A program made the position numbers and the translations under genes. Shown here piece after piece: positions 1 to 64,000 of a stretch of 64,000 bases of DNA (position 1 is its first letter; each line of letters opens with the position of its first letter). Below the pieces are notes generated by a model, which saw only the letters and a list, made by a program, of their open reading frames with translations, did no database searches and was not told where the DNA came from. The stretch lies in the NCBI GenBank assembly GCA_024679065.1, contig JAGIQG010000019.1, positions 16,058,001-16,122,000 of the forward strand. Direction: 5' to 3'. The DNA comes from Sphyrna mokarran. Taxonomy: Eukaryota.

Positions 1-68
1 AGAATATTTATGGGTCATGTTTGATCCTTACTGAGGTGCAAGCAATATCAAATGTCTGTGCTGTTTAG

Positions 69-125
69 GGTCAACAAGAACTGCAGGAACTGAAGGACCA
101 ACCACTTCAGAGACCACCATCAGTG
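69..125 (+). CDS. Exon type A (57 nt)
   Basis: tttag|..|gtgag; GSTRTAGTEGPTTSETTIS. Confidence 0.8.
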
Positions 126-3100
126 GTGAGTTTCTGTTTTATCAAACTCACCACCTGAAATTAATTTGTGTGCTTTATGGACTCATCTTGTTTCATAGTA
201 TCTCTGTTCCCTGGGCCCAATGGGAATGACTGTGACAGGTACACTTCCTGTTTCTAAGAGCAGTGTTACTGGTGAACTGGGCTTCTTCTGTTAGTGTTGT
301 ATTATTTGTGATTTTTAATCCTACCCGAGGCCTACAGTTATATTGGATCTGCAGCAGATAGCAGAACAGTCACGCGGATAGTTTCTGAACCTGTGATTTA
401 AGGACGATTGAATGTATTCTCGGTGTCATACAATGTTTGCGATGCCAAGGTGTCCCAGCTAAGGAATATGTTGTTAGTGTGTCATTGCAGTTCACTCTAT
501 TTTTAGTCCATTCAGATGGAAGGCTTTGAATGTATATCAGTTGAGATGTTCCATACTGCTTTTCGTGAGCATCTTCTTCATTGTTTATGTATTGGCTTGT
601 GTTGAAATTGTCAACAGATAGAAATTAATGATTGGTTTATTTGTACACATTTGCTTCTCAGTGTAGAAACTGTAAAGACATGCATGTTGGTGTTTCACTT
701 GTCTGTTAATTGATGCATATTCATGTTGACACTGAAGGTGCTCTTCAGTGAGTGGAAATTGGAATAATAAATGCTACCTGATAGAGTAGATGTCTTGTAT
801 TTCAATTATAATGTTTGAAAGTGGGCAGTGTTATTGAATGTGATTATTGATCATAATGTACGTTGTGTCCATGATGTTTATGAATTGAAACGGTAAGTAA
901 GGCAGACTGTCCAAACTTTAATGAGCACTGGAAGATCCTGGTTTTGACATTCTGCATTGCATTTTGGAAGCATATATTGAAATTTAAAATTTAACATTTT
1001 CATTTGTATTTTGAAGACTTGGTGTTTGGTGCTATTGATTTTAGATTGCTAAATGCATTTATTCACATGAACGATGATTGGTAAGGCATTTGGTGATTTG
1101 AGATGTACAGTAATGCATGGTTTATCAGTGATCTGCTGGAAAGCTCCTCATTTGTAGCCTAGCCGAAGGACAGCATGTTTAATTTTGATTCGGCAGTATG
1201 ATAGACCTGATGAAATTTATGTGCAGGCATAATTATTCCTTCCAACAGAATAAATTCAAAGCAGTAAATTTCAATATTGTAATGAATTCCTGATCAGAAA
1301 TGCCATTTGTTCAGTGGGATTTTTGAAAGACAAACTTTATTCTTTGGAAAACAACTGATTTAATCAGCTTTGAAATTTCACTTTTACTGGCAAATAACAT
1401 CCAAATCATTTTGGGAAAATTTAATGCTATGTTTGCTGACTCCATGTTGAATTTTTTTGTAATTACCTGAAAAGTTAGCTGGTTTTTGAACACATTTTGG
1501 TCGACTAACTGTTCTGAATGATAAGAGCTGCGTTATTGGAAGAGAATGATTAACTGTGTAGTTTGTGAATGGAGATTTTCCTCTTTTCCTTCCCAATGTG
1601 GAGCCATTTACCACTTGAGGCTTTGATTGATGTAATGATGCTAAGATGAATAAGAAATCTCGGAAAACAATTGCAGCGGTAATGAGTAAATATTCTGTAC
1701 AAATTCTGCTTCTCTTTAGGGCCAACACCATTCAGCGGAACAGGAAGACCTACAACTTCAGAGACTACTATCAGTGGTGAGTATTATCTTTAGCATCTTC
1801 GTCATCTGAAATTAATTGATTTGTTTGGTAGATTAATATTGTTGCAAATTTGCCTCACTATATAGGGCCAATAGCAATGACTTCATCAGGTGTACCAACT
1901 GTTCCTGAAACAGCAATTACTGGTGAGTAGATCTCCTTAAACATTACAACGTGCTATTAATTTAGAGCTTTTTGTAATTTAATACTCTGCAGCACTTTTT
2001 CTCTTATTTTGGGCCAGCATCAATTAGGATGATAGTAAATCCCATCGTTTCTGAAACGAAGAGTAATGATGTATGTATTCATTCACGTTGTCACAATATT
2101 TCAAAACCTTGAATAATTGGCTTTGACAAACAAACATCATTTGAAACTTGTGAAATTTAGTATTGTGTTGCTGACAGCAGGTCAATGATATTGTTGTTCT
2201 TCAGGCATCACGACTGAGGAACTGTTCTGAAGTGAAATCTCAGAATTTGAGTGAGAGAATTATTGCTGATCTGCGAGATAATTTTTGGGACATATTTAAC
2301 CTTACTGAGGTGCAAGCAATACTGATTAAGAATTTGACTAAGATAATATTTGCTTATAACCAAACATTTCCTTGGAAATGAATTGCAGTCGTAGTGAATA
2401 AATACTCTGTCCAAAATCTGTGCTGTTTAGGACCAACAAGAACTGCAGGAACTGGAGGACCAACCACTTCAGAGACCACCGTCAGTGGTGAGTTTTGGTT
2501 TTATTGTAACTGTCACATTAAATCAATTTGTGTGCTTCATGGACTAATGTTGTTTCATCTTATCCCTGCTCCCTAGTGCCAATGGCAATGACTGCAACTG
2601 GTACACTCCCTGTTTCTGAGAGCAGAGTTACTGGTGAGCAGAGCTTCTTTCATGTTATAAGCTGCTATTAGTTTTGTGCTATTTTTGATTTTTTTTTAAC
2701 CCTACCCTACCTAGGTCTATAGTTATGTTTGACCTGAATGAGGTAGCATGGCAATCAGTCAGTCAGTTTCCAAAAATGTGACTAACAATGATTGAATGTA
2801 TTCTTAGTGTCATACGATGTTTGCGATGCCAAGATGTCCCTAGCAAGGGACATGTTGTTGGTATGCCATTGCAATTCCTATATTTTCAGTCCATTCAGGT
2901 GGTTTGAATGTGTGCCAGTTGAATTGTTCCATATTGCTTTTGGTCAGCATATTTTTGTTTGAATATGCTTGTTTTTGTCCTGATGGTAAAATAGCTAACT
3001 AATTCCTATCTGTTATTCCTCTATTTCAGTTTTTCTACACATTTGCTTCTCGATGCAGAAGCTGTAAAGACATGCACTTTGGTGTTTTACTTGTCTCACT

Positions 3101-6100
3101 GTTATACGATGTATAGCCATGTTGAGATGAAAGGGCTTTTCATTGAAGGAAAATTGGCGTATTAAGTGCTACCTGACACAGTATTATCAATTATAATATT
3201 CAGAAGAGGGTAGTGTTATTGAATATGATTATTAATGGTAATGCAAATTGTGTGGCATGCTCCAAAGTCAACTTGAGACCATGAATTGCAGTATCTGTGA
3301 ATTTCAAAAATAAGGAAGACTTTTCAAACATTAATGAGCACTGTGATATCTGGTCTTGACACTCTGCATTTCTGTTTTAGAAGCGTATATTGAAATTTAA
3401 AATTTGATATATTTACATTTGCATTTTGAAGAGTTGGATTTTGGTGCTATTGACTTTAGATGGCTAAATCCATTTATTTGGATCAGTGATGATTAGAAAG
3501 GGATGAGGAAATTTGAGATGTACAATAATGCATGGTTTGTTTGTGACCAAAAGGTTGAATGGAAAGCATTTGTAGATTTGCAGAATGACAGAGTCTTTTG
3601 TTTTGGTTCAGCAGTGTGACAAACCTTGGTGCTGAAATTTATATGCAGACAGATATCATAATTATTCCTTCCAACAGAATAAATTCAAAGCCGTAAATTT
3701 CAATATCATAATGAATTCTTGATCAGAAATGCCATTTTTTCCGTGTGATTTTTGAAAGACAAACTTTATTCTTTGGAAAACAAATGATTTAGTCAGCTTT
3801 AAAATTTCATTTTCACTGGCAAATAATATCCAAATATTTTTGAGAAAATTCGTGCCACATTTGCTGTCCCCATGTTGAATTTTTTTGTAATTGCCTGAAA
3901 AGTAGCTATTTACCATTCAGAACAGTTCCAATGAAAATTGGAATGGATTATTTATGTATTACTACTGCAATTCATTTCCAAGGAAATGTTTAGTTATAAG
4001 TTTCATTATCTGAGTCAAATTCTTAACCAGGAATTGCTGGCACCTCAGTAAGGATCAAACATGATCCATAAACTATCTCGCATATCAGCAATAATTCCCT
4101 CACTCAAATGCTAGGTTTCCCTTCAGAACAGTTTTTCAGTCATGTTGCCTGAGGGAATAACAATATTATTGACCTGCTCTCAGTAACACAACATTAAATT
4201 TCATAAGTTTCTAATGTTGTTTGCTTGTGAAAGCTAATTATTTAAGGCTCTGAGATATTATTGTAACAATGAGAAGTTACATCCATCTTTCTTTCAGAAA
4301 CTATGGGATTTACTATCATCCTAGTTGGTCGAGGAACTATTCCAAATGGTAAGCGCAGCATGTGTGGAAGGGAATGATTAATTTTATAGCTTGCTCATGG
4401 ACATCTTTCTTTTTCCTTCACAATGTGGAATGATTTGCCACTAGAGGCTTTGACTGACATAAAAATGCTAAGATGAATAAAAAATCTTGGGGAACAATTG
4501 CAGCAATAATGAATAAATATTCTGTACAAATTCTGCTTCTCTTTAGGAACGACACCATTCACAGGAACTGGAAGACCTACAACTTTAAGGACTGCTGTTA
4601 GTGGTGAGTCTTGTTTTTGGCACCCTCATCCCCTGCAATTAATTTACTTGATGGGTAGATCAATATTACATAGGGTGAACAGCAATGACTCCATCAGGTG
4701 TGCCAACTATTTCCGTGACAGCAATTACTGGTGAGTAGATCTCTTTATACATTATAACCCGATATTCATGTTGGGGAATTTATAATTTAATACTCTGCAG
4801 CTTTTTTTCTGATACCTTGGACCAGCACCAACTAGGATGATAGTAAATCCCATAGTTTCTGAAAGAAAGATGGATGTAACTTCTCATTGTTACAATAATA
4901 TCTCAGAATTGAAAAAAAAGGCAGTTGTCCAAACTTGAATGAGCAATCAGAGATCCTGATTTTGACATTCTGCATTGCTGTTTTGGAAGCGTATATTGAC
5001 ATTTAAAATTTAATATATTTACATTTGCATTTTGAAGAGCTAGTATTTTGGTGCTATTGACTTCAGATCATTAAATCCATTTATTCACATGAATGATCAT
5101 CAATCAATGCACCCTACAGTGCAGAAAGAGGCCCTTCTGCTCATTGAGTCTGCACCGAACTCACTCCCACCCAGACCCTACCCCCGTATCCTTACATGAA
5201 TCCTTCTAACCTACACATCCCTGGCCATTAAGAACTATTTCTTAGCATGGTCAATCAACCTAACCCGCACATCTTTGATCTGTGGGAGGAAACCGGAGCA
5301 CCCAGAGGAAACCCATGAATTGATAAGGTATCAGGAGGTTTGAAATGTGCAATAATGCATGGTTTGTCTGTGACCAAATGGCTGAGTTGGAAGCACCTCT
5401 TTGTAGACTTGCAAAATGACAGACTGTTTTTATTTTAGTTTGGCAGTATGGATAAACTTTGCTGTTGAAATGTATGTGCTGATAGACAAATAATTATTCC
5501 CTCCAACAGAATAAATTCAAAGCAGTAAATTTTAATATCGTAATGAATTCGTGATCGGAAACGCCAGTGAGATTTTTGAAAGACATACTTATTCTTTAGA
5601 AAATAAATATTTAGCCACTGTTAAAATTTCGTTTTTACTAGCAAATATTCTCTAAATAATTTTGGGAAAATTTAGTGCCATATTTGCTGACCCCATGTTG
5701 AGTTTTTGTAGTTGCCTGAAAAGAATGTGCTTTTTGGAGGCAACTTGGTTGAGGACCTGTTCTGAATGTTAAGTGTTGCTTTTGTGGAGGAGAATGATTA
5801 GTTTGCCGACTGATATTTTCCTTTTTCCTTTGCAACGTGGAAGCATTTGTCACTTGAGGCTTTGACTGACATAATGATGCTAAGATGAATTAAAAATCTT
5901 GGCAAGCAATTTCACTGTTAATGAATAAATATTTTGTACAAATTCTGCTTCTCTTTAGGGCCAACACCATTCACAGGAACTGGAAGACCTACAACTTCAG
6001 AGACTACCGTCAGTGGTGAGGATTGTTTTTAGCATCCTCATCATTTGAAATTAATTGATTTGATTGGTGGATTAATATTGTTTCAAATTTGCTTGATTAC

Positions 6101-9100
6101 ATAGGGCCAACAGCAATGGCTCCATCAGGTGTACCAAGTATTCCCAAGACAACAATTACTGGTGAATAGATTTCCTTACACATTAGAATCTGATGATAAT
6201 TTTGAGCAATTTATAATTTAATAACCTCCAGCATTTTTTCTGTTAACTTGGACCAGTAATAACTCGGATGATAGTAACTACCATTGTTTATGACACTGGG
6301 TGTAATGATGAGTTTATTAGTTCACATTGTCACAATAATCTTTCCAAATCTTGAATAATTAGCTTTCACAAGCAAACAACATTTGAAACTCGTGACATTT
6401 AACATTGTGTTGCTGAGAGCAGGTCAATGATATTGTTATTCCTTCAGTCAATCTACTTGAGGAACTGTTCTGAATTGCAGCAGTATTGAATAAGTATTCT
6501 GTTCAAATTCCGTTTTTAGGGCCGACACCATTCATAGGAACTGGAAGACCTACAACTTCAGAGACAACCGTCAGTGGTGAGTGTTGTTTTTGACATTCTC
6601 ATCAACTGAAATTAATTCTTTGATGGATAAATTAATATTGTTTCAAATTTGCTCAATAATATAGGTCCAACAGCAATGACTCCATCAGGTGTACCAACTG
6701 TTCCCAAGACAGGAATTACTGGTGAGTAGATCTCCTTGCACATTAAAACCTTAATTTTGAGCTTTTTGTATTTAATACTCTGCAGCACTTTTTCTGTTAA
6801 CTTGGACCAGCAGCATCTCAGATGATAACAACACCATTGTTTCTGACACTGAGATAATGATGGATATATTAATTGACATTGTCACAATAATGTTTCAGAA
6901 TCTTGAATAATTAACTTTGACGAGCAAACACCATTTAAAACTTGTGAAATTTAACGTTGTGTTGCTGAGAGCAGATCAATGATATTGTTATTCCTTCAGT
7001 CAACATACCTGAGGAACTATTCTGAAGGGAAACCCCAGAATTTGGGTGAGGGAATTATTGCTGATCTCGAAAGTTTATGGGTCACGTTTGATCTTTGCTG
7101 AGATGCAAGCAACACCTGGTTAAGAATTTACTAAGATAATGATGCTTATAATTCAACATTTCCTTGGAAATGAATAGCAGTAGTAGTGAATAAATATTCT
7201 GTCCAAATGTTTGTGCTGTTTAGGGCCAACACGAGCTGGAGGACCAACCACTTCAGAGACCACCATCAGTGGTGAGTTTCAGTTTATTGTACTCACTACA
7301 CGAAATTAATTTGTGTGCTTCATGGGCTCATCTTGTTTCCTATTATCTGCTCCCTAGGCCCAATGGGAATGACTGTGACAGGTACACTTCCCGTTTCTGA
7401 GAGCAGAATTACTGGTGAGCAAAACTTCTTTCATGTTAAAAAATGCTGTTAGTTTTGTGCTAGTTGTGCTTTTTAACTCTACCACAGGTCTATAGTTACA
7501 TTGGACGCACCAGGGAACAGGACAGTCACTCAGATAACTTCTGAACCTGTGATTAACAATGATTGAATGTATTCTCAGTGCCATGCAATGTTTGCGATGC
7601 CATAGTGTCTCAGGCAAGGGATATGTTATTGGTGTGCCATTACAGTTCACTGTATTTTCAGTCCATTCAGATGGAAGGTTTTGAATGTGTACCTGTTGAG
7701 TTATTTCATATTGCATTTGATGAGCATCTTCTTGTTTGAAAGTGCTTGTTTTTGCTTTGTGCTGAATGTAAAATGTTCAACAGATAAGAATTAGTGATTG
7801 CTTTATTTCAGTTTTTGTACACATTTGCTTCTCAGTGCAGAAACTGTAAAGACATGCATGTTGGTGTTTCACTTGCCTGCTAATAGATGCATCTTCATGT
7901 TGATACTGAAGGAGCTTTCCACTGAATGGAAATTGGAATAATAAATGCTACCTAATAGAGTAGATGACTTGCATTATCAATTATGATGTTTGAAAGAGAG
8001 CAGTGTATTTGAATAAGACAATTGATCACAATGTAAATTGTGTCTATAAAGTCTGCTTGAGACAATGAATGGCAGCATTTATGAATTTAAAAAGATAGTA
8101 AGAAATAAGGTATACTGTCCAAACTTTAGTGAGCAGTGGAAGATTGTGGTTTTGACTTTATGCATTGCTCTTCTGGAAGCATATATTGAAGTATGAAATT
8201 TAACATATTTTCATTTCCGTTTTGAAGAGCTAGGATTTTGGTGCTATTGATTTATAGTCGCTAAATACATTTATTCACATGAACGATGGTTGGTAAGACA
8301 TCCGGAGATTTGAGATGTACAATAATGCATGGTTTATCAGTGACAGAAAAGTCTACTGGAAAGCCCTTATTTGTAGCCTTGCAGAACGACAGGATCTTTT
8401 ATTTAATTTGGCCGTATGCTTGTGAAATTTATATGCAGATAGACAGACGCAATTATTCCTTCCAGCAGAATAAATTTCAAGCAGTAAATTTCAATATCAT
8501 AATGAATTCTTGATCAGAAATGCCACTTGTTTAGTGGGATATTTGAAAGATACACTTTATTCTTTGGAAAACAAATGATTTAGTCAACTTCGGAATTTCA
8601 CTTTTAATAGCAAATAACATCCAAATCATTTTGAGCAAATTTAATGCTATATTTGCTGAGTTCATGTTGATTTTTTTTGTAATTATTTGAAAAGTAGCTG
8701 GTTTTTGAAAGCAACTTGGTCGAGTAACTGTTCTGAATTGTAAGCGCTGCATTTGTGGAAGGGAATGATTAACTTTGTAGTTAGTGGGAAGGAGGAAAGG
8801 AAAATATCCATTCAATGTGGAGCCATTTGCCACTTGAGGTTTTGAATGACAGAATGATGCTCAGATGAATAAAAAGTCTTGGGTAAAGTTGCAGCAGTAA
8901 TGAATAAATATTGTGTACAAATTCTTCTGCTTCTCCTTAGGGCCGACACCATTCAGACGAATTGGAAGACCTACAACTTCAGAGACTACAGTCACTGGTG
9001 AGTATTTTTTTTGGCATCTTCGTTACCAGAAATTAATATATTTGGTGGGTAGATTAATATTTTTTCGAATTTGCTCCACTCCTTAGGGCCAACAGCAAAG

Positions 9101-54100: not shown

Positions 54101-57100
54101 TGTTTCTGAAACGTGGATTTTTTTGGATGCATTTATTCACATTTTATCATGTAATTTGTTCTGCCACGGTGTCCCAGGCAATTTTTATTTTTCACACGAT
54201 TGAGATTGATTATATTTTCAGTACACTGACATGGAAGTGACCAAAAGAGTCCCACTTACGTTGTATGACTTCGCTTTAGCTTTCTTGGTTGAACATTGTT
54301 CTTTCTCCTTTTGCGCTGATAATGCTTTCGAATAGGAGATTGTACAACTGATAGCAATTATTGAATGCTTGTTGCCTCTTGTTTACAATTTCAGTCGCCT
54401 AGATTGAAAACTTTGAGCACAACCTTGTTGGTGTTTGAAATGTCTCACTGCGCATTGATGAATCTTCATTTTGAGATTTATAAAGCTTTTCATTGAAGTA
54501 TTTGAAAAGTGAACATTAGCTGCGATAGAAGAAGTCTGGTGTTATCAGTTGAACTTTCAGGTGAAGATGGTGCTGTTGAATAATTTTTGTTGATTATAAT
54601 GGACATTATCTCATATGCCACTATTTTCTGCTTTGACATATTGTTGGCAAAATCTTAAAGCTAAAGGAAGATGATGACAGGAAAGGCAGCTTAAACATAT
54701 TAAACAATGGAGAATTAAATGTCTGTGTAGCTGTTTTGGAAGCAGATATTGAAATTTAATATCTGTTTATTGGAATCATGCTTTTGCATTTTGAAGACCA
54801 AGGAAATTGCTGTCATTCATTTTAGAATTTATATCCATTTGTTTGCATGAATGATGGTAGATAAGACAACTGATGTTTTGAGAAGTATGATAATGCTTCT
54901 TACTTCTGAAAGTGAAGGGTGAGGATTAACGCATCTAATTTGTCGAATGCAGAAATGAGTGTAGTCTTCTGATTCTGAAATATTATGGTCCTGAAATATG
55001 GAAGACCTTTACTAGAATAAAGAAAACATTATTCCTTCAAAATAAAGTGCAGGTTATCAAATAATTGATATATTATTGTTTTGAAATGCAACTTTTTGAA
55101 TGAGAATTTGAATATACATTTTATAGTTTTGAAGATTGATCCTTTTTAGGAATCTTTAAAATTAGCTTTCAACAGCAAACAACATCTCAAACTCGGTGAA
55201 ATTTAACATTGTGTTTGCTGACGGCATTTCAATTATATTGTTATTCCTTCAGGCAACATGACTGAGGAACTTTTCTGAAGAGAAACCTCAGAATTTGAAT
55301 GAGGGAATTATTGCTGATATTCTAGATGAATTAGGGATGCATTTTGTTCTTACTAATGAGCAAGCAGTTCCTCGTTCGGAATTTGACCAAGATTATGATG
55401 CTTATAAACATCTCCTTAAAAATGAATTGCAATAGCAGTGAATAAATACTTCGTCCAAATTTCTGAGTTTTTAGGGCCAACAAGAACTGCAGGGACTGGA
55501 GGACCAACAACTTCAGAGACCACCATCAGTGGTGAGTTTTAGTTTTATTGTACTCACCGTATCAAATTAGTTTGTATTGTTCATTGACTTATATGGTTTG
55601 ATATTATCTTTGCTTCCTAGGACCAACAGCAATGACTGTGACAGGTACACTTCCTGTTTCTGAGAGCAGAATTACTGGTGAGCAGAGCTGTTTCATGCTA
55701 TAAGCTGCTGTTACTGTTGTGTTAGTTGTGACTTTTAACTCTTCCATGTGTCTGCAGTTAAACCAGATCCACACCGGATAACAGGACAGTTACTCAGTTT
55801 CTGAAACTGTGATTAACAACGATTGAATGTATTTTCAGCATCATATGATGTTTGTGCTGCCAAGGTGTCCCAGTCAAGGAACATGTTGGTGTATCATTGC
55901 AGTTCACTGTATTATTAGTCCATTCAGATGGAAGGGTTTTACTGTGTACCAGCTGAGTTGTTCCATACTTCTTTTAGGATGCTTTTTCTTGTGCTTCATT
56001 CTGCTTTGAACTGATAATGTTTTCTGATGGGAAAGGGTCTACAGATATGTTTCAGTTAATACTTAATTTAAGTTTTTGTATATTTCTACATTTCAGTTCA
56101 GAAACTGTGAGCACCAGCATGTTGTTGATTTACTATAATTGCTATTCGATGCATGTTTATGTTGAGACTGAAAGAGCTTTTCAGAGAACTGGAGTTGGAA
56201 TATTAAAGATTACTTGATTTAGTAAATCTCTGACATTATCAGTTCTAACTTTTTAAAAGAGGACAATATTATTGGATAAGATTATTGATTATAATGCTGA
56301 CTGTCGGACATGCCCCTGTTGCCATCTTGAAAGTATGAATGGGAATATATTTGAATTTTAAAAGATATTAATAAGCAAAATTACCCAAACTGTAATGAGT
56401 TATGGAAAACCTTGGATTAGAAATTCCACATTTGTTTTGTTTTTTGTAATTTATATTCATATTTGAAGTCTGTTTATTTGAATCATTCATTTGCATTTGA
56501 GACCTAAGAAATCACTGCCATTCACTTCAGAAGCTGTATCCATTTATTTGCATGAATGATGATGGGTGAGGCAACTGGTGCTTTGAGGAGTAAAAAAGTG
56601 TCTGTTAATTCTGAGAGTGAAGGGTCTGTACTGAAAGTACCTAATTTGTACAGTGCAGAAATGTACACCTTTGTTTTGATTTTGATGAATTGTGACCCTG
56701 AAATATGAAATTTCTTCATGGAAAAACAAACAAAACATTCCCTTAAAGAGATGAATGTGAAGTGCAGGTTATCAAGAAATTAATGTTTCGCAGATTAATC
56801 AATTTTAGGAAACTTTAAAAATGAGCTTACACAAGCAAACAAAATCTTAAACTTGTTGAGAAATTTATTGTTCAATTTGCTGATATTAGGTCAATTCTAT
56901 TGAGAGTTTGTCTAGATAATGATGCTGACATTAAAATTTCCTTGGAAGTGAATTGCAGTTGTGAATAAATACTCTATCAATTTCTCTGCTGTTTAGGGCC
57001 AACAATAACTGCAGGAACTGGAGGACCAACAACTTCAGAGACCACCATCAGTGGTGAGTTTTGGTTTTATTATATTTGCCATAACAAATTATTTTGTGTT

Positions 57101-60100
57101 CTTTGTGAACAAATCTTGTTTCATATTATCTTTGCTTCCTAGGGCCAATGGCAATGACTGTGACAGGTAAGCTTCCTGTTTCTTGACAGCAGAATTACTA
57201 GTGAGCAGAGCTTCCATCATATTAATAGATACTGTTAATTTCGTGCTATTTGTGATTTTTAACTCTTGGATTTGTCTGTAGTTAGGTTATAGTTTAGAAG
57301 ACTTGGTTGAAATTTGAAATTTAAAATTTGACATATTTGCAATTGCAATTTGAAGAGCTAGGATTTTAGTGCTATTGATTTTAGATCACTAATTCCATTT
57401 ATTCACATGAATGATGATAGATAAGGCATCAGGAGATTTGACATGAACAGTAATGCATGGTTTGTCTGTGACCGAAAGGTCTGCAGGGAAGCACCTCATT
57501 TGTAGGTTTGCAGAATGACAGGTCTTTTATTTTGATTCTGCAGTATGATAGACCTTGCTGGTGAAACTTATATGCAGACAGACAGTCAAAATTATTTCTC
57601 CCAACAGAATGAATTCAAAGCAGTAACTTCCAATATCATAATGAATTCCTGTTTGGAAATGCTACTTGTTTGGTGGGATTTTTGAAATTCACGCTATATC
57701 CTTTGGAAAACAAATAATTTCGTCAGCTTTAAAATTTAACTTTCACTAGCAGATAATATCCAAATCACTTTGAGAAAGGTTAATACCACATTTGCTGGCC
57801 CATATTGAATTCTTTGTAATTGCCTGAAAAATAGCTGGATTTTTGCAGGCAGGTTGGTTAAGGAACTGTTCTGAATGGCAAGCACTTCATTTGTGGAAGG
57901 CAATGATTAACTTTATAGTTTGCATATGGATATTTTCCTTTTCTCCTCATAATGTGGAACCATTTGCCACTTGAAGCTTTGACTGACATAATGATGCTAA
58001 GATGAACAAAAAGTCTTCGGAATTGCAGCAGTCATGAATAAATATTCTATATAAATTCCGCTTTTCTTTAGGGCTGACACCAATCACAGGAATTGGAAGA
58101 CCTACGACTTCAAAGACTACTGTCACTGGTGAGTATTATTTTTAGCCATCCTCGTCACTTGAAATTAATTTATTTGATTGGTAGATTAATATTGTTTCAA
58201 ATATGCTTTATTGCATAGGGCCAAGAGCAATGACTCCATCAGGAGTACCAACAGTTCCTGAGATAGCAATTAGTGATGTACACAGCTTCTTACACATTAT
58301 AACCTGATATTCATGTCGAGCAATTTGTGACTTAATGCTCTGCAGAATTTTTTCTGTTACCTTGGACCAGCAACAACTCGGATGCTGGTGGCAAAATCTT
58401 AAAATTAAAGGAAGACGCAGATATTAGAACATTAGAAGCAGACATTGGAATTTAAGTCTTTTTTTTAATCATGCATTTGCATTTTGTAGACCTAGGAAAT
58501 TGCTGCCATTTATTTTAGAATTTATGTCCATTTATTTGCACAAATGATGATAGGTAAGGCAACCGGTGCTTTTAGTAGTATGATAATGCTTCTTAATTCT
58601 GAAAGTGAAGGGTCAGGATCGAACTTATCTAATTTGTAGAATGCTGAAATGGGTGTATTCAGGGATGTTCCATAGTTTTCTCTGTGCAGTATGATGAGGG
58701 ACTTTACTGAATACTAATGGGGTTGCTGTTTCTAGGCCCAGAGATGTTCCATTGTTCTGATTATGGGTGAGGTGAGGGATTTTATTGAAGTGTTGGAGTT
58801 TTAACTCGGCAGGGGAAGGGCACCATATGCTGCTTCCAGGCTCATCAAGTCAGGCAACTGGTGCTTCAATCTGCCCTGCTCCAAGTGCCTTACGTGCAAT
58901 ATATACCTGGAAGGGAATGCTATAATGGCACCCATGGCAACGGCTCATGGTGTGCAATGGCCACATCCTCGCACCTACCTGTATGCTCTCCCTACATGCC
59001 GTGGCCACAAAACCAATGGCAGGCAACCTAATCAGGTGATATATGGCACTCCAAATTGTATTGTGTTGCCAGCGTCCACAAGTGATACACTAGCCCAAGT
59101 GAGGGAGTGGAGGTTGCCTAGATAGTAAAAACCAAAGACATGTATCTATCTATCTCTCTGTTTCTGTCTGTCTGTCTGTGTGTCTCTCTCTTTCTCTGTA
59201 ATTTCCACCGCGCAGATTGATTTTTGGACTGATAAGTCTGAAGCTGACCATCATGCTAGCAGCTGTTGAGGAGAAGCTCAGGAGATGAAGAGAGTCATCT
59301 GACCACTGCAAGACCAGCCAATAGTAGAACCTACAGAAGGAGGACAGGGGGCTGCCAGTGAGGTCCAAGAAGTGACATCACAGCTTCCCGCGGGGTGAGG
59401 GTAGGGGAAGCAAGATTGGAGACAGAGGCTGTACAGCATAGCAGAGTGTGCAACACCTGTATCAGGCCCTTGCAGACCTGGCACCTCGGGAGGGGAGGGT
59501 ACTCACTCCCAGTGAAAGTGAAGGTGATGGGGGCACTAAATTTTGATATTACTGGATATTTCCAGGCACTCAGTGGGGACATCTGGCATATCTGTGCACA
59601 GATGTGTGCACTAGGTTATGAATGTGTTGTAACATAGAAACATAGAAATAAAAATGTTAGAAGCAGGAGGAAGCCATTTGGCTCTTCGAGCCTGCTCCGC
59701 CATTCATTATGATTACGACTAATCATGAAACTCAATAGCCTAATCCTGCTTTTTCTCTATAGCCTTTGATCCCATTTGCCACAAGTGCTATATCTTGCAG
59801 TCTCTTGAATACATTCAATGTTTTGAGATCAACTACATCCATTCTTTAGGTGAAGGAATGCCTCCCCACCTCTGTCCTAAATGGTCAAGCCTGAATCTTT
59901 AGACTGTGCCCCTAGTTCTGGACTCCCCTCTGCAATGGGAATATCCTCTCTGAATCTACTCTATCTAGTCCTATTAGAATTTTATAAGTCTCTATGAGAT
60001 CTCCTCCTTCATTTCAATTCCAGTGAAAACAATCCTAACCTAGTCAATCTCTCCTCGTACATCATTCCCGCCATCCCCAGATGCAGCTGGTAAACCATTG

Positions 60101-62595
60101 CAGCACCTCCTCAAGAGCAAGAACATCCTTCCTCAGAAAAGGAGACCAAAACTGCACACAGTATTCTAGGAATGGCTTCACCAAGGCCTGTATAATTGCA
60201 ACAACACATCCCTGCTCTTGTACTCAAAATTCGTCTTCCTTGTATGGCCTGCCAGGCCAGTAAATCAACGTTGATTTTGGCCAGATTTAGTAAGAGGCTG
60301 GGCTGTGAGCTTAGCCATCATTGCTGACATGTCCATGTGCAAAGGGCAGAGGATGGGATACACATCACTCTGTGGTGCCTGCAGTGTGAGGGACAAATGT
60401 TTGTAAACAAGAAGGGCTTCCATTCACTAAACATGCAGTTAATATGTGACTACAGACTAATCATTGTGCAGGTGTGTGCATGGCAGCCAGCAAGTGTCTA
60501 TGACAGTCATGCTCTGAGTTGTTTGCAAGAAGTCTCACAACACCAGGTTAAAGCCCAACAAGTTTATTTGATAGCACAAACCACTAGCTTTCAGAGCGCT
60601 GTCCCTTCATTAGATGAGGGGGAGTTCTTTTCTCAAACAGGCCATATAAAGACACAAACTCAATTTACAAAATAGTGGTTGGAATGCGAGTCTTTATAGG
60701 TAATCAAGGACGGTCACCTCAGCACTTGATTGTATGCAAGCCCATGGATAACCTCACAATGCTCCACTTCTTCAGCTTCCATGCTAAACATGTTAAAGAA
60801 GCCATCGTCTATGGACAAGCTCTCTGTATGTACAGGATCTGCTAAGATGAGGAGGATTGCAACAGAACATAAGAACATGGAGCAGGTCATTCAGCCCCTC
60901 GAGCCTGCCCCGCCATTCAAGAAAATCATGGCTTATCTGCAGTGGTTCAATAACCCTTCCCCGTTTTCTCCCTATAACCCTTAATTCCCTTATCAATCAA
61001 AAACCTATCCACTCTTGACTTAAATATATTCAGCATCTCCAGATGTGGAAAGATGCCTTCATAAGATCGGGATATGACACACGACCAACAGTTCCAATGC
61101 GCCATAGCAAAAATCCGCACTGACCTCCTCAGAAGACGAACATGATACACAGCAGACAGAGTACCTTTTGTCATCCATTACTTCCCCGGAGTGGAGAAGG
61201 TATGACATATTCTCCAGAGCATTCAACATGTCATTGATGAAGGCGAACATCTTGCCAACTTCATCCCCACAGCCCTATTTCTTGCCTTCAAACAACTGCA
61301 CAACCTCAAACAGTCCATCGTCCGCAGCAAATTACCCAGCCTTCAGGAGAACAGTGATCACGACACTACACAACCCTGCCACAGCAACCTTTGAAGGATC
61401 ATTAACATGGATGCCATCATCTCACGTGAGAACACCATCCACCAGGTATACAGTCCATACACTTGCAACTCAGCCAATGTTGTTTACCTGATACGCTGCA
61501 GGGAAAGATGTCCTGAGACATGGTAAATTGGGGAGATCACGCAGACGTTATGACAATGGCTGAATGAACGCCGCTCAACAATCATCAGGGAGGAATGTTC
61601 TCTTCCTGTTGGGGAACATTTCACTGGTCACGGGCACTCAGCCTCTGACCTTCGGGTAAGTGTTCGCTGAGGCGGCCTTCATGACACGTGACAATGCAGA
61701 ATCGCTGAGCAGAAACTGATAACCAAGTTCTGCACACGTGAAGATGGCCTCAATTGGCATCTTGCATTTATGTCATGCTATCTGTAACCCTCACGACTTG
61801 CCTGGGCAACCAAGAGCACAGTGTGAAAGGCATCAGAGAGACCAATGCACTCTGTGTGAAAGGCAGCACTGAGGCCAGTGCTCTGTGTGAAAGACAGCAG
61901 TGAGAGTATGAGATGACAATAACTTCAATGCTGGGAGAAAATAACTCCTTAAAACAGATAAAAGCTAAGTGCATGTTATGGAGAAATTGATGTAATACTA
62001 TTCCGAAATGCAACTTTTTCAGGGGGAAATTTGAAAACACAGTTTATTGTTTGACGATTAATTATTTTTAGGAACCTTTAATAATTAACTTTTACAAACA
62101 AACAACATTTCAAACTTGTTGAAATTTATCGTTGTATTTACTGAGACCAGGTCAATGATATTGTTATTCCTTCAGGTAACATACTTGAGGAACTGTTCAG
62201 AAGAGAAACCTCAGAATTGGAGTGAGGGAATTATTGCTGATCTGCGAGATAGTTTATGGATCATGTTTGATCCTCACTGACGTGTACCCAATTCCTAGTT
62301 AAAAATTTGACTAAGATATTTACAATTTAAACATTTTCTTGGAAATGAATTGCAGTAGTAGTGAATAAATACTCTGTCCAAATTTCTTTGCTGTTTAGGG
62401 CCAACAATAACTGCAAGAACTGGAAGGCCAACGACTTCAGAGACCACCATCAGTGGTGAGTGCTGGTTTTATCGTACTCACCATTCAATTCATTTGTATT
62501 CTTCACTGATATTGTTTGATATTATCTTTGCTCGCTAGGGCCAATGGCAATGTCTGTGACAGGTGTACTTCCTGTTTCTGAGAGCAGAATTACTG
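69..62595 (+). CDS. Internal portion of a giant mucin-like (PTS-rich) gene encoded by ~76 intact symmetric microexons; both ends lie outside the window or were not recognised
   Basis: 87 copies of 57-nt blocks (four of 48 nt, one of 51 nt), most flanked by pyrimidine-rich AG and GTGAG/GTAAG, all phase 1-1 (G|GN). They are open in one frame, translate to Thr/Pro/Ser/Gly-rich 19-mers, and are visibly more conserved than the spacers. Confidence 0.88.
215..271 (+). pseudogene. Type B exon with broken acceptor
   Basis: ccctgg| instead of ccctag|. Confidence 0.7.
1720..1922 (+). CDS. Exon pair C 1720-1776 + D 1866-1922
   Basis: AG/GT intact, 89-nt intron; GPTPFSGTGRPTTSETTIS / GPIAMTSSGVPTVPETAIT. 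Confidence 0.8.
2012..2068 (+). pseudogene. Representative type E pseudo-exon (recurs after most D exons)
   Basis: 89 nt after D, 57 nt, reads GPASIRMIVNPIVSETKSN but is flanked by TG| and |AT. Confidence 0.65.
2431..2633 (+). CDS. Exon pair A 2431-2487 + B 2577-2633
   Basis: AG/GT intact; GPTRTAGTGGPTTSETTVS / VPMAMTATGTLPVSESRVT. Confidence 0.8.
3911..4329 (-). repeat. Inverted copy of array intron sequence (E pseudo-exon plus pre-A intron)
   Basis: Reverse complement of the normal D-to-A spacer; 4249-4329 is an exact reverse complement of 4827-4907. Confidence 0.9.
4547..4603 (+). CDS. Exon type C
   Basis: AG/GT intact; GTTPFTGTGRPTTLRTAVS. Confidence 0.6.
4674..4730 (+). pseudogene. 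Type D exon with in-frame TGA
   Basis: ag|GG TGA ACA; upstream intron shortened to 70 nt with loss of the pyrimidine tract. Confidence 0.7.
5099..5315 (-). mobile_element. 5'-truncated HE1/V-SINE-like SINE
   Basis: Minus strand reads tgggtttcctctgggtgctccggtttcctcccaca..aaagatgtgcgggttagg (V-domain-like core) with a CR1-type tail; interrupts the array intron. Confidence 0.8.
5959..6161 (+). CDS. Exon pair C 5959-6015 + D 6105-6161
   Basis: AG/GT intact; GPTPFTGTGRPTTSETTVS / GPTAMAPSGVPSIPKTTIT. Confidence 0.8.
6520..6721 (+). CDS. Exon pair C 6520-6576 + D 6665-6721
   Basis: AG/GT intact; GPTPFIGTGRPTTSETTVS / GPTAMTPSGVPTVPKTGIT. Confidence 0.8.
7224..7414 (+). CDS. Exon pair A (48 nt) 7224-7271 + B 7358-7414
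   Basis: In-frame 9-nt deletion in A; GPTRAGGPTTSETTIS / GPMGMTVTGTLPVSESRIT. Confidence 0.8.
8941..9143 (+). CDS. Exon pair C 8941-8997 + D 9087-9143
   Basis: GPTPFRRIGRPTTSETTVT / GPTAKTSSGAPIVPETAIT. Confidence 0.8.
9629..9831 (+). CDS. Exon pair A 9629-9685 + B 9775-9831
   Basis: GPTRIAGSEGPITSETTVM / GPVAMTVTGTLPISESRIT. Confidence 0.8.
11666..11860 (+). CDS. Exon pair C (51 nt) 11666-11716 + D 11804-11860
   Basis: In-frame 6-nt deletion in C; GPFIGTKRPTTSETTIS / GPTAMIPSGVPTVPETAIT. Confidence 0.78.
12353..12409 (+). CDS. Exon type A
   Basis: AG/GT intact; GPTRTAGTRGATTSETTVI. Confidence 0.75.
12499..12555 (+). pseudogene. Type B exon with broken donor
   Basis: |atgag instead of |gtgag. 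Confidence 0.7.
12642..13422 (-). mobile_element. 5'-truncated CR1-clade LINE (ORF2 C-terminus and 3' tail)
   Basis: ORF 12715-13281 has LYKTLVRPHLEYCVQFWSP..LERRLRGDLIEAYK..FFTQRVVRAWNALP; (ttctatg)n tail; 7-bp target-site duplication gttacat at 12635-12641 and 13423-13429. Confidence 0.95.
14812..15014 (+). CDS. Exon pair C 14812-14868 + D 14958-15014
   Basis: GPTPFTGTGKPTTAETTVS / GPTAMTPSGVPTVPVTAIT. Confidence 0.8.
15152..16713. mobile_element. Non-autonomous TIR DNA transposon (probably PIF/Harbinger), inserted in an E pseudo-exon
   Basis: Ends aggcctgattttacca ... tggtaaaatcgggctc; C-rich interior; related to and opposite in orientation to the copies at 48739 and 52525; target-site duplication unclear. 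Confidence 0.75.
16008..16332 (-). mobile_element. Penelope-like 3' fragment nested in the TIR element
   Basis: cacaacaccagtttaaagtccaaacaggtttatttg matches the Penelope-like terminus at 60527; boundaries approximate. Confidence 0.6.
17082..17138 (+). CDS. Exon type A
   Basis: GPTTTARTGGPITLETTIS. Confidence 0.75.
17228..17284 (+). pseudogene. Type B exon with broken acceptor
   Basis: ccctgg|cgcc, whereas the paralogues at 28363 and 39505 have ccctag|. Confidence 0.65.
18310..18366 (+). pseudogene. Orphan type D exon with broken acceptor
   Basis: ccttgg|; partner C exon deleted. Confidence 0.7.
18722..18924 (+). CDS. Exon pair C 18722-18778 + D 18868-18924
   Basis: AG/GT intact, open. Confidence 0.8.
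19415..19607 (+). CDS. Exon pair A (48 nt) 19415-19462 + B 19551-19607
   Basis: GPTGTGGPTTSETTIS / GPMGMTVTGTLPVSESRIT. Confidence 0.8.
21225..21426 (+). CDS. Exon pair A 21225-21281 + B 21370-21426
   Basis: GPRRTARTGGPTTSETTIS / GPMGMTVTGTLPVSESRIT. Confidence 0.8.
21516..21572 (+). pseudogene. Representative type F pseudo-exon (recurs after most B exons)
   Basis: 89 nt after B, 57 nt, reads GAAPGNRTVTQIISEPVIN, flanked by TG| and |AT. Confidence 0.6.
22951..23153 (+). CDS. Exon pair C 22951-23007 + D 23097-23153
   Basis: GPTPFRGIGRPTTSETTVT / GPTAKTSSGAPIVPETAIT. Confidence 0.8.
23652..23853 (+). CDS. Exon pair A 23652-23707 (indel-ridden, probably sequencing error) + B 23797-23853
   Basis: A is 56 nt with scattered 1-nt indels relative to 34796/45942; B is intact, GPVAMTVTGTLPVSVSKIT. 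Confidence 0.6.
25686..25888 (+). CDS. Exon pair C 25686-25742 + D 25832-25888
   Basis: GPTPFTGTGRPTTSATTVS / GPTAMTPSGVPTVSEIAIT. Confidence 0.8.
26366..26579 (+). CDS. Exon pair A 26366-26422 + B 26523-26579
   Basis: GPTITVGTGGPTTSETTVS / GPMGMTVTGTLPVSESRIT. Confidence 0.8.
28217..28419 (+). CDS. Exon pair A 28217-28273 + B 28363-28419
   Basis: GPTTTARTGGPITLETTIS / APVPMTMTGMFPVSASRIT. Confidence 0.78.
29445..29501 (+). pseudogene. Orphan type D exon with broken acceptor
   Basis: ccttgg|; copy of 18310. Confidence 0.7.
29857..30059 (+). CDS. Exon pair C 29857-29913 + D 30003-30059
   Basis: AG/GT intact, open. Confidence 0.8.
30563..30755 (+). CDS. Exon pair A (48 nt) 30563-30610 + B 30699-30755
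   Basis: AG/GT intact, open. Confidence 0.8.
32372..32573 (+). CDS. Exon pair A 32372-32428 + B 32517-32573
   Basis: AG/GT intact, open. Confidence 0.8.
34098..34300 (+). CDS. Exon pair C 34098-34154 + D 34244-34300
   Basis: AG/GT intact, open. Confidence 0.8.
34796..34998 (+). CDS. Exon pair A 34796-34852 + B 34942-34998
   Basis: APTRTAGTEGPITSETTVM / GPVAMTVTGTLPVSVSKIT. Confidence 0.8.
36831..37033 (+). CDS. Exon pair C 36831-36887 + D 36977-37033
   Basis: AG/GT intact, open. Confidence 0.8.
37511..37724 (+). CDS. Exon pair A 37511-37567 + B 37668-37724
   Basis: AG/GT intact, open. Confidence 0.8.
39359..39561 (+). CDS. Exon pair A 39359-39415 + B 39505-39561
   Basis: GPTTTARTGGPITSETTIS / APVPMTMTGMFPVSASRIT. 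Confidence 0.78.
40587..40643 (+). pseudogene. Orphan type D exon with broken acceptor
   Basis: ccttgg|; copy of 18310. Confidence 0.7.
40999..41201 (+). CDS. Exon pair C 40999-41055 + D 41145-41201
   Basis: AG/GT intact, open. Confidence 0.8.
41705..41897 (+). CDS. Exon pair A (48 nt) 41705-41752 + B 41841-41897
   Basis: AG/GT intact, open. Confidence 0.8.
43514..43715 (+). CDS. Exon pair A 43514-43570 + B 43659-43715
   Basis: GPARTAGTGGPTTSETTIS / GPMGMTVTGTLPVSESRIT. Confidence 0.8.
45244..45446 (+). CDS. Exon pair C 45244-45300 + D 45390-45446
   Basis: AG/GT intact, open. Confidence 0.8.
45942..45998 (+). CDS. Exon type A (partner B at ~46091-46158 is garbled)
   Basis: GPTRTAGTEGPITSETTVM. 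Confidence 0.78.
47539..47729 (+). CDS. Exon pair C 47539-47595 + D 47673-47729
   Basis: GPTLMAGTGRPTITETTVS / GPTAMTASGVPTVPKTAIT. Confidence 0.78.
48739..49581. mobile_element. Non-autonomous PIF/Harbinger-like TIR element
   Basis: gggctcgattttacca ... tgataaaatagggcgc; 3-bp target-site duplication ata. Confidence 0.8.
50057..50261 (+). CDS. Exon pair A 50057-50113 + B 50205-50261
   Basis: GPARTAGTGGLTTSETTVS / GPTAMTVTGTLPVSESRIT. Confidence 0.8.
51176..51366 (-). mobile_element. Short CR1-type LINE/SINE 3' end
   Basis: agaacatagaacaatacagc..caggccctttggccc resembles the tail at 12642. Confidence 0.7.
51829..52031 (+). CDS. Exon pair A 51829-51885 + B 51975-52031
   Basis: GPTTPAGTGGPTTSETTIS / GPTAMTVTGTLSISESRIT. 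Confidence 0.8.
52160..52240 (-). mobile_element. Penelope-like terminal fragment
   Basis: tctcacgacacctggttaaagtccataaggtttatttg, same motif as at 16008 and 60527. Confidence 0.55.
52525..53519. mobile_element. Non-autonomous PIF/Harbinger-like TIR element
   Basis: gggcctgattttacca ... gataaaatcaggtcc; 3-bp target-site duplication cat; G-rich interior. Confidence 0.8.
53774..53976 (+). CDS. Exon pair C 53774-53830 + D 53920-53976
   Basis: GPTPFTGTGRPTTSETTVT / GPTVMTPSGVPAIPETAIT (D donor gtgtgt). Confidence 0.78.
55475..55677 (+). CDS. Exon pair A 55475-55531 + B 55621-55677
   Basis: GPTRTAGTGGPTTSETTIS / GPTAMTVTGTLPVSESRIT. Confidence 0.8.
56997..57053 (+). CDS. Exon type A
   Basis: GPTITAGTGGPTTSETTIS. 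Confidence 0.78.
57143..57200 (+). pseudogene. Frameshifted type B exon (58 nt, TGA); possible 24-nt in-frame form 57143-57166
   Basis: 1-nt insertion gives tct TGA; an internal CAG|GTAAGC donor lies upstream of the lesion. Confidence 0.6.
58072..58128 (+). CDS. Exon type C
   Basis: GLTPITGIGRPTTSKTTVT. Confidence 0.7.
58219..58275 (+). pseudogene. Type D exon with broken donor
   Basis: |atgtac in place of |gtgag. Confidence 0.7.
59145..59197. repeat. Compound microsatellite (tcta/tctg/tc)
   Basis: tatctatctatctctctgtttctgtctgtctgtctgtgtgtctctctc. Confidence 0.8.
59395..60525 (+). mobile_element. Decayed Harbinger/HARBI1-like DDE transposase, split by a CR1 insertion
   Basis: SLPVKVKVMGALNFDITGYFQALSGD (ORF 59395) and DGIHITL..FVNKKGFHSLNMQLICD..PASVYDSHAL (ORF 60337) match DDE_Tnp_4 motifs (DGTHI, NRKGFHSLN.Q, PGS.HDS). 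Confidence 0.8.
59631..60228 (-). mobile_element. CR1-clade LINE 3' fragment
   Basis: catagaaacatagaaa tail; minus strand reads LEYCVQFWSP (ggagaccaaaactgcacacagtattctag). Confidence 0.85.
60527..61810 (+). mobile_element. Decayed Penelope-like element (RT C-terminus and GIY-YIG) with an inverted terminal piece at 60527-60710
   Basis: From ~61440 reads HQVYSPYTCNSANVVYLIRCRERCPETW*IGEITQTL, a GIY-YIG-type signature; contains stops and frameshifts. Confidence 0.8.
60864..61046 (-). mobile_element. CR1-type 3' tail nested in the Penelope-like element
   Basis: agaacataagaacatggagcaggtcattcagcccctcgagcctgccccgccattc; minus ORF reads FKSRVDRFLIDKGIKGY. Confidence 0.75.
62399..62595 (+). CDS. Exon pair A 62399-62455 + B 62539-62595
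   Basis: GPTITARTGRPTTSETTIS / GPMAMSVTGVLPVSESRIT. Confidence 0.8.
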
Positions 62596-64000
62596 GTGAG
62601 CAGAGCTTCTCTCATGTTATAAGCTGTTGTTAGTGTTGTGCTATTTGTGATTTTTAACTCTTCAGTTTATCTGTGGTTATATTGGATTACACCAGCTGCA
62701 GGACATTCGCTCAGATTGTTAATCACAGTTTCAGAAACGTTGATTGAATGTATTCTCAGTGTCATACGATTTTTTTGTGCTGCCAAGCTGATCCTGCTAA
62801 GGGATATCTTGTTGGTGCATCATTGCAGTTCACTGTATTTCAGTTCATTCAGATTGAAGGTACTGTATTTCAGTCTATTCGGATGGAAGGGTATCAATGT
62901 GTACCAGTTGAGTTGTTCCATAATGCTTTAAGTAATCATCTTTTTGGTTGAATGTGTTATTTCTCCTTTGTATTGATAATGTTTTCTGTTGGGAAAATGG
63001 TCAAGGGATGAAGTTAGTGAATGTTTTGTTTAAGCATTTGTACACTTTTACTTCTCAGTTCAGGAACTGTGAGTCCAAGAATGATGGCGTCTTACTTGCC
63101 TCACTGCTAATTGATGCAAATTTTGTTGAGACTGAAAAGCTTTTCACTGAACAGAAATTGGAATAGTAAATACTACCTGAAATAGCAGATGTCTGATATT
63201 AACAATTGTAAATTTTAGAAGAGTTTGATGTAATTGCATAAGATTATTGATTATGTCAGCTGCCCGTCTTGTCCCTATTGTTACATTGAGAGGATGAATA
63301 GCAACATATTTGAATTTAGAAATAAGGTAATAAAGAAGACTGTCCAACCTGTAATGGGCAATGGAAAATCCTGGTTTTGACAAGCTGTATTTTTGTTTTG
63401 GAAGCGTGTGTTAAAATTTAAAATTTGATGTGTATTTGTATTTCTATTGGGAAATTGGGCTACTGATAGTAATTAGCAAATCTATTATTTCCATTTGTTT
63501 ACAATTTTAGTTCCCAACATTGAAAACTTTGAGCGTAACCTTGTTGGTGTTTGAATTGCCTTCATTGCGCATTGATGCATATTTATGGTGAGATTGATAG
63601 AACTTCTCATTGAAGAGATATTTGAAAAGTGAACATTAGCTGAGAAAGAATATGTCTGGCATTTTCAATTGAATGTCCAGGTGAAGGTGGTGGTATTGAA
63701 TAAATTTGCTGTTTATAATGCACCCTACCTCATGTGTCACTTTGCCTGTTTTGAGTGAAATATTAGCAAAATCTTTAAATTAAAGTCAGATGCTGATAGG
63801 AAAGTCAATCCTAAACCTATTGAGTGATGGAGATTGGAGTTGAATGTATATAAGTTTTGGTAACATATATTGAAGTTTAAAGTCTGTTTATTTGAATCTT
63901 GCCTTTGCATTTTCAAGACTTAAGAAATTGCTGCTATTCATTTTAGAAGCTATATCCCTTTATTTGCATGAATGATGGGTAAGACAACTGGTTATTTAAG

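Follow-up and report, generated by a model that had tools for sequence, protein, structure and literature searches.

Mucin genes with one repeat per exon, and the idea that splicing acts on such repeats, have already been published; what is new here is an unusually large shark case. The repeats of the Xenopus laevis mucin FIM-B.1 are reportedly spliced as cassettes. RefSeq holds about 50 isoforms of X. laevis mucin-19 that differ by short repeat pieces, and we take this gene to be FIM-B.1, which fits its sushi-like module and a cited paper title. The shark gene resembles the cassette mucins of the FIM-B.1 and FIM-C.1 type in having one repeat per symmetric exon. However, FIM-B.1 carries 11-residue acidic repeats and a sushi module, whereas the shark gene has 19-residue units of four types, a CysD domain and a much larger array. 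FIM-B.1 is also alike in being a VWD-type mucin, found in skin (PMC7177656). One repeat per exon is likewise described for chicken Muc13, where length control by alternative splicing has been proposed (PMC1552070), and Otogl/MucXS of Xenopus tropicalis has a multiexonic mucin domain (PMC5789918). Both belong to other gene families, with at least 12 repeats in Muc13 and 34 PTS repeats in Otogl versus 216 here. The comparison with schistosomes, also drawn from the sequence at first sight, would be one of analogy only.

The clade to which we assign the gene comprises mammalian MUC19, fish spiggin/muc19 and X. laevis mucin-19. Like these, it lies behind LRRK2, and its D1-D3 region falls on the same side of a tree. 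Mammalian MUC19 shares three VWD units, a PTS region, a VWC-like module, a cystine knot and the lack of a fourth VWD (PMC4948705). In contrast to mammalian MUC19, the shark gene has a CysD domain, which that paper gives as characteristic of MUC2/MUC5, and it is one of several tandem paralogues. The longest isoform of human MUC19 has an uninterrupted central exon (as cited in PMC13345508), whereas the PTS domain is spread over 216 small exons here. A sequence-only reading of this DNA had named MUC19 as an analogue; the relationship goes beyond analogy to clade membership, but human MUC19 is at best a partial precedent for repeat-per-exon design. A literature search, with subscription journals outside its coverage, turned up no paper that treats this gene or the exon structure of Muc19 in sharks.

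The stretch of Sphyrna mokarran DNA that we analysed (the window) is 64,000 nucleotides long. Its repeat blocks very probably form the middle of the PTS domain of a secreted gel-forming mucin gene of the MUC19 clade, which appears to be intact.

Repeat exons in the window and beyond

An iterated position-weight (PWM) scan seeded with five blocks retrieved 84 blocks on the plus strand. Full-length blocks scored 66-111, while nothing on the reverse strand exceeded -26 and nothing in five shuffled sequences exceeded -42. The count rose to 85 with a length-tolerant model built on the 3' half, and BLAST added one block at 57,143. The resulting 86 blocks fall one short of the 87 in the sequence-only reading. 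Both AG and GT were present in 78 of the 85 classified blocks, and 76 of those were without stop or frameshift, exactly the number of intact blocks claimed. All 76 are symmetric, in phase 1-1 and divisible by three in length, as had been stated, but they are not all 57 nt long: 71 measure 57 nt, four 48 nt and one 51 nt. Under stricter definitions, exons of 48-57 nt are small exons, not microexons. Together they encode 1,430 amino acids, in keeping with the >1,400 proposed, with 37.8% T+S and 51% P+T+S; C is absent, as claimed, and so are N, D, Q, H, Y and W. Instead of the single 19-residue unit design that had been assumed, there are four unit types, paired as A-B and C-D with an intron of about 89 nt between partners, and the higher-order repeat of the array is the A-B-C-D unit (Table 1). 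Types B and D contain an internal in-frame CAG/GT at exon position +24, a possible cryptic donor or acceptor.

The blocks had been said to look like satellite DNA. Yet Tandem Repeats Finder, run on the window, did not see them and returned three unrelated short matches only. In two genome-wide DNA searches, the best 40 of 116 and the best 40 of 115 candidates were all located in the array locus. A satellite or dispersed repeat was rejected on these locus-confined matches and on the coding-type constraint described below. One array intron holds a 202-residue stop-free stretch on the minus strand (12,715-13,323), which presumably corresponds to the C-terminal part of a CR1/L2-type LINE ORF2. Insertions of higher GC content occur in the window at about 15-16 kb, 52-53.6 kb and 58.3-62.3 kb.

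Whereas the array was first described for positions 69 to 62,595, it extends past both window ends. Coordinates outside 1-64,000 are given as the position on contig C760 minus 16,058,000. Within 464 kb around the window, which are free of Ns, the scan found 236 blocks; this is a lower bound, as the block that it missed at 57,143 shows. Outside the window, 148 blocks lie upstream and three downstream. AG and GT were present in 219 blocks, and 216 of them are open. Joined in order, the 216 intact exons give 4,071 stop-free residues with 51% P+T+S and no Cys, and they occupy 6.8% of the array span. The last nucleotide is G in 208 of the 216 intact exons and T in two, and 30 exons start with GA. 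Since only joins of the two T-ending with the 30 GA-starting exons can give TGA, almost any subset could be skipped in frame, though not literally any subset, as had been proposed.

Several blocks are individually damaged (Table 1). After a 19-nt deletion in the intron, the pyrimidine tract of block 4,674 is the weakest among the 219 AG/GT blocks, and this block is probably a dead exon. Block 23,652 carries several small indels that are absent from its sister copies at 34,796 and 45,942, by decay or assembly error. In block 57,143, the internal CAG/GTACAC is changed to CAG/GTAAGC, which gives a possible in-frame 24-nt exon (57,143-57,166); this strong new donor may represent a frame rescue. 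The scan counted a block at -87,709 as acceptor-less, where one AG would make the exon 58 nt long and another, 7 nt beyond it, 51 nt. Frameshifts occur in two AG/GT blocks, at 23,652 and at -87,694 (the latter with an in-frame AG 7 nt downstream), which counts against the coding reading.

Table 1. Repeat array, unit types, single blocks and predicted neighbouring exons, in window coordinates
Feature	Position	Strand	Remarks
LRRK2 beta-propeller exons	-225,358 to -212,037	+	context, outside the gene; same strand
5' part of gene	-195,400 to -124,655	+	modelled exons, upstream of window
Full array	-112,402 to +66,793	+	179 kb; whole window (1..64000) inside
PTS repeat-exon array, part in window	69..62595	+	86 blocks, 76 intact symmetric phase-1 exons
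Type A unit			PTPFTGTGRPTTSETTVS
Type B unit			PTAMTPSGVPTVPETAIT
Type C unit			PTxTAGTGGPTTSETTxS
Type D unit			PMAMTVTGTLPVSESRIT
Seven blocks with AG or GT lost	215, 12,499, 17,228, 18,310, 29,445, 40,587, 58,219 (range 215..58275)	+	
Type-B block with in-frame TGA	4674..4730	+	AG/GT kept
Recent tandem expansion	16907..46220	+	11.1-kb exon-plus-intron unit, about 2.6 copies
Type-C block with frameshift	23652..23707	+	56 nt, AG/GT kept
Type-D block with +1 frameshift in 3' half	57143..57200	+	found by BLAST
3' part of gene	68,163 to 77,215	+	downstream of window
Linker exons	68,163-68,210; 69,702-69,757	+	
VWC-like exons	70,319-70,420; 71,825-71,876	+	
Cystine-knot exons	73,886-73,994; 77,053-77,215	+	11 Cys; stop codon at 77,215
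AATAAA	near 77,450	+	beyond the stop

The surrounding gene and its family

As predicted from sequence and homology, the gene spans roughly 272 kb and has at least 254 exons, which encode about 5,600 amino acids without internal stop. The order of domains in the model is signal peptide, D1-D2-D'-D3, CysD, array, VWC-like module and cystine knot, with no D4. A signal-peptide exon at -195,400, called by eye from its hydrophobic N-terminus, and two short exons are followed by 29 modelled exons with GT or GC donors and AG acceptors. These 29 comprise D1-D2-D'-D3, two short Thr-rich PTS exons and the CysD exon. The 5' model amounts to 1,302 stop-free residues, and the CysD exon ends in phase 1 at about -124,655, matching the phase of the array. 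Pfam detected TIL on one exon here and VWD, C8 and TIL on the 83%-identical Mustelus orthologue, and the CysD exon matched Mucin2_WxxW with 54.7 bits. One D2 exon has a GC donor at -165,348 in the best model.

On the 3' side, the exons chain in phase. The two knot exons scored 13.9 and 19.1 bits for Pfam Cys_knot, each under the 24-bit whole-domain cut-off, and BLAST identity to mucin C-termini was 29-40%. A tblastn search with three D4-bearing paralogues gave no match to a fourth VWD from +60,000 to +179,000. The reading as a membrane mucin was rejected: the 3' chain closes with a knot and a stop codon and needs no SEA or transmembrane exon. The proposal of a chondrichthyan mucin domain with one repeat per symmetric phase-1 exon is supported, and flanking domains of the kind named in the sequence-only reading were found, with signal-peptide and VWD/C8/TIL exons upstream and cystine-knot exons downstream of the array.

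For the D1-D3 tree (FastTree, midpoint root, no VWF or otogelin outgroup) we used 57 rows, namely the gene and 56 sequences chosen from 282 fetched. The gene fell within a group of 25 chondrichthyan rows, and tetrapod and ray-finned Muc19/spiggin lay on that side of the tree too. This MUC19 side was split from MUC2, MUC5, MUC6, ovomucin and lamprey mucin with an SH-like support of 100. The nearest rows, again with support 100, were the Mustelus 'mucin-19-like' protein (83% over D1-D3) and the whale-shark 'mucin-2-like' protein (63%). Among non-shark sequences, the best BLAST scores were 932-951 bits for MUC19-type proteins versus at most 849 for MUC5/2/6. Membership in MUC2/5/6 was rejected, as there is no D4 and no grouping with MUC2/MUC5 in the tree. 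CysD, a MUC2/MUC5 trait, is present here, but it is not diagnostic of MUC2/MUC5 because many shark and reedfish rows of the Muc19 clade have it as well. In the shark Muc19-clade C-termini that we inspected, D4 is mostly kept.

The gene starts 16.6 kb downstream of the LRRK2 propeller exons on the same strand, and the human order is SLC2A13-LRRK2-MUC19-CNTN1 (PMC7019335). Of the other synteny probes, COR-A matched on other contigs, COR-B gave no match, alpha-adaptin was uninformative, and CUE matched on contig C1437, where a different VWD cluster lies about 2 Mb away. VWD exons occur on both strands at 15.87-17.01 Mb of the contig (a span of about 1.1 Mb behind LRRK2), in a genome-wide scan that scored 150 of 200 candidates and missed the exons of the present gene. 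Since the matches continue to 17.0 Mb on both strands, the present gene would be the first of a cluster, which suggests several Muc19-clade mucins behind LRRK2. Further VWD clusters lie at C1437:63.8-65.1 Mb (large) and C1437:86.2-86.35 Mb.

The next paralogue (+179,700 to +240,750) has D1-D3, kilobase-long Thr/Ser-rich open stretches, CysD and D4. With its kilobase-long PTS stretches, it places large-exon and repeat-exon designs side by side. Its PTS frame at 218,500-222,300 shifts several times (assembly error or decay). Three Muc19 paralogues are given for the ghost shark in PMC4948705. Overall, Muc19 seems to have multiplied into a cluster in sharks, with CysD and, in most cases, D4.

The likely orthologues are Mustelus asterias 'mucin-19-like' XP_078090731.1 and Rhincodon typus 'mucin-2-like' XP_048466531.1. 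Neither model includes the cystine knot; both break off at about 1,420-1,490 amino acids, where the array begins or shortly after. The tail of XP_078090731.1, GKYAIDI, equals the CysD exon read into the intron here, and XP_048466531.1 ends in an A/C-like unit plus GEYC, matching read-through of a type-A donor. When this whale-shark tail was compared with types A and C, 3 and 1 of 500 shuffles scored as high; with types B and D there was no match above shuffles (352 and 119 of 500 as high). Among 282 homologues of 143-5,000 residues, the repeat motif was found in the whale-shark model only. The suspected misannotation is borne out for these relatives, whose two closest public models end at the array start with intron read-through as tails. 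XP_048466531.1 has three CysD domains before the repeats versus one here and in the Mustelus model. In XP_078090731.1 the first TIL exon is absent and apparent intron pieces occur near residues 969-1030; the DNA here that matches these residues carries a stop.

Coding signals, splicing and length variation

We compared exons and introns of the array for traces of coding constraint. After collapse of near-identical copies, 12 of 15 distinct indels in exons were multiples of three versus 4 of 48 in short introns (Fisher P 2.5e-7), although the exons' own 3-nt periodicity can favour 3n slippage. Stops were carried by 2 of the 184 de-duplicated exons versus 8.6 expected in simulations (P about 0.007). 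Both P values are optimistic because the copies share history. AG and GT each differed at 2.2% of positions, while fourfold exon sites differed at 8.4% and intron cores at 11-16%. Strong consensus splice sites, with near-consensus GTGAG donors, flank most of the intact exons. One of the two stop-carrying AG/GT blocks has the weakest donor and the other the weakest pyrimidine tract (each 1 of 219), ranks that were picked post hoc and with donor sites forming part of the detection model. Zero-fold sites varied by 7.5% versus 8.4% at fourfold sites, which indicates little constraint at the amino-acid level. Judged by these patterns, the array is with high probability coding, and its exons would presumably be spliced.

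Among the sequencing runs listed as containing matches, none is recorded as RNA, which tells neither for nor against expression. Transcripts were checked over 62,301-72,300 at 80% likeness. Three contig sets, from two studies of related organisms, were guessed to be RNA and mostly reached a likeness of 90-95% or less; an unlabelled run, which behaved as DNA, was compared with them. The guessed-RNA contigs touched four array exons, at positions 62,416, 62,425, 62,565, 62,566, 64,766 and 64,900. One contig of 644 nt contained a piece at 70,317-70,418 that equals the VWC exon within 2 nt, flanked by 501 and 41 other letters. The bin depths of run X3 would fit one depth-5 contig on the 102-nt and 52-nt VWC-like exons. 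Among the matches listed, all 15 joints (there are 378 more) lay in intronic repeats and none at exon ends. At listed positions in short introns that the DNA-like run covers, the guessed-RNA runs showed zero depth; this is at best a faint hint.

It is extremely improbable that the exon-like array is in truth a segmental repeat that is non-coding or in decay, whether satellite-like or pseudogenised. Such a repeat would suit the 20 broken blocks among 236, the similar zero-fold and fourfold divergence and the finding of no array junction among the joints listed from related-organism contigs. It conflicts with the in-frame indel bias, the stop depletion and the conservation of splice sites, with the stop-free flanking exons in matching phase and the homologous unit in the whale-shark model, and with the confinement of the best 40 matches to the array locus in both genome-wide DNA searches. 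Partial inflation of the array by a false expansion of the 11.1-kb unit during assembly is very unlikely. The tandem copies are near-identical (98.4% over 18.2 kb at a shift of 11,134 and 96.6% at a shift of 22,279), and the cluster of small indels in copy 23,652 resembles consensus error. However, divergence between the copies is 1.6-3.4%, the 464 kb contain no N gaps, and 184 of the 215 57-nt blocks stay distinct after de-duplication, so that an artefact could affect at most a small part of the array.

How the exons would be used is a separate matter, on which related genes bear. RefSeq isoforms of Muc19-clade genes, which are automatic models, differ by whole repeat units. In Scyliorhinus torazame the steps measure 19 amino acids (19-95), in Mustelus mostly 20-42, in reedfish 16 (16-80) and in sawfish 37 (37 and 74). 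Xenopus mucin-19 isoforms differ by pieces of 3, 8, 11 and 14 amino acids (3-19) and by one module of 65. Most sampled isoforms are without only one to five units, under 4% of length, and isoforms of one catshark gene are up to about 500 amino acids shorter. The isoform clusters had 49, 37, 35, 52, 42 and 42 members, with at most 15 listed per cluster and 5-14 aligned, and the isoforms may reflect short reads mis-mapped among near-identical exons. If the RefSeq ladders were such mapping artefacts, there might be one constitutive isoform, with intact exons always in, dead blocks skipped and length varying only between alleles by unequal crossing-over. This reading is possible but doubtful. The 11.1-kb expansion is a copy-number change in the genome and the splice signals are conserved, yet unit-step ladders recur in the automatic clade models of five species, and it would be surprising on general grounds if all 216 short exons, spread across 179 kb, were included without fail. 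A regulated combinatorial splicing, by which tissues or cells pick subsets of the four unit types and set mucin length and glycan-site pattern, is unlikely. The intact exons are all symmetric with nearly any junction stop-free, and related genes have many whole-unit isoforms (35-52 cluster members). High polymorphism by alternative splicing is reported for Xenopus FIM-C.1 (PMC7177656), and the same idea was proposed for chicken Muc13 (PMC1552070). But the small losses in the sampled isoforms speak against regulated choice, and so do the near-consensus GTGAG donors of the intact exons and units that are alike in their Thr/Ser load.

We favour some stochastic skipping of intact units, which, by analogy with the related genes, probably produces a length ladder. 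The array may have grown by unequal crossing-over of exon-plus-intron units (A-B-C-D, lately the 11.1-kb unit). As all exons are in phase 1-1 and a multiple of three long, a unit could be duplicated, deleted or silenced by splicing with the frame kept. About 20 dead blocks would be skipped, a necessity if the knot is to be made, and inclusion is probably the rule for most intact exons. Since the units are alike in Thr/Ser content, skipping would mainly change length. The protein would dimerise via its cystine knot (PMC5789918 for the knot); from family knowledge, we expect multimers via D3, dense O-glycosylation of the Thr/Ser stalk and secretion into mucus. The domains are of known kinds, and the repeat array should be disordered.

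A predicted repeat-exon mucin beside a large-exon relative

Where the nearest public models break off after a quarter of the shark mucin, the analysis provides a model of full length, which is relevant to elasmobranch mucus proteomics. It also gives sequence-level evidence for a symmetric repeat-exon array that is kept in frame, with dead exons silenced singly. With 216 intact exons, and 184 of the 57-nt blocks distinct, the proposal of 2006 that alternative splicing sets PTS length (PMC1552070) becomes testable by long reads.

There is a small chance that the gene encodes a splicing-tuned mucin, for which tissues choose among more than 200 exons and the array turns over by exon birth and silent death. 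If so, the shark cluster, where a D4-less repeat-exon gene neighbours a large-exon gene that has D4, would offer a natural test of why mucin repeats occupy one exon in some genes and many in others. The ancestral Muc19 would then have had CysD and D4, and D4 would have been lost separately here and in tetrapods.
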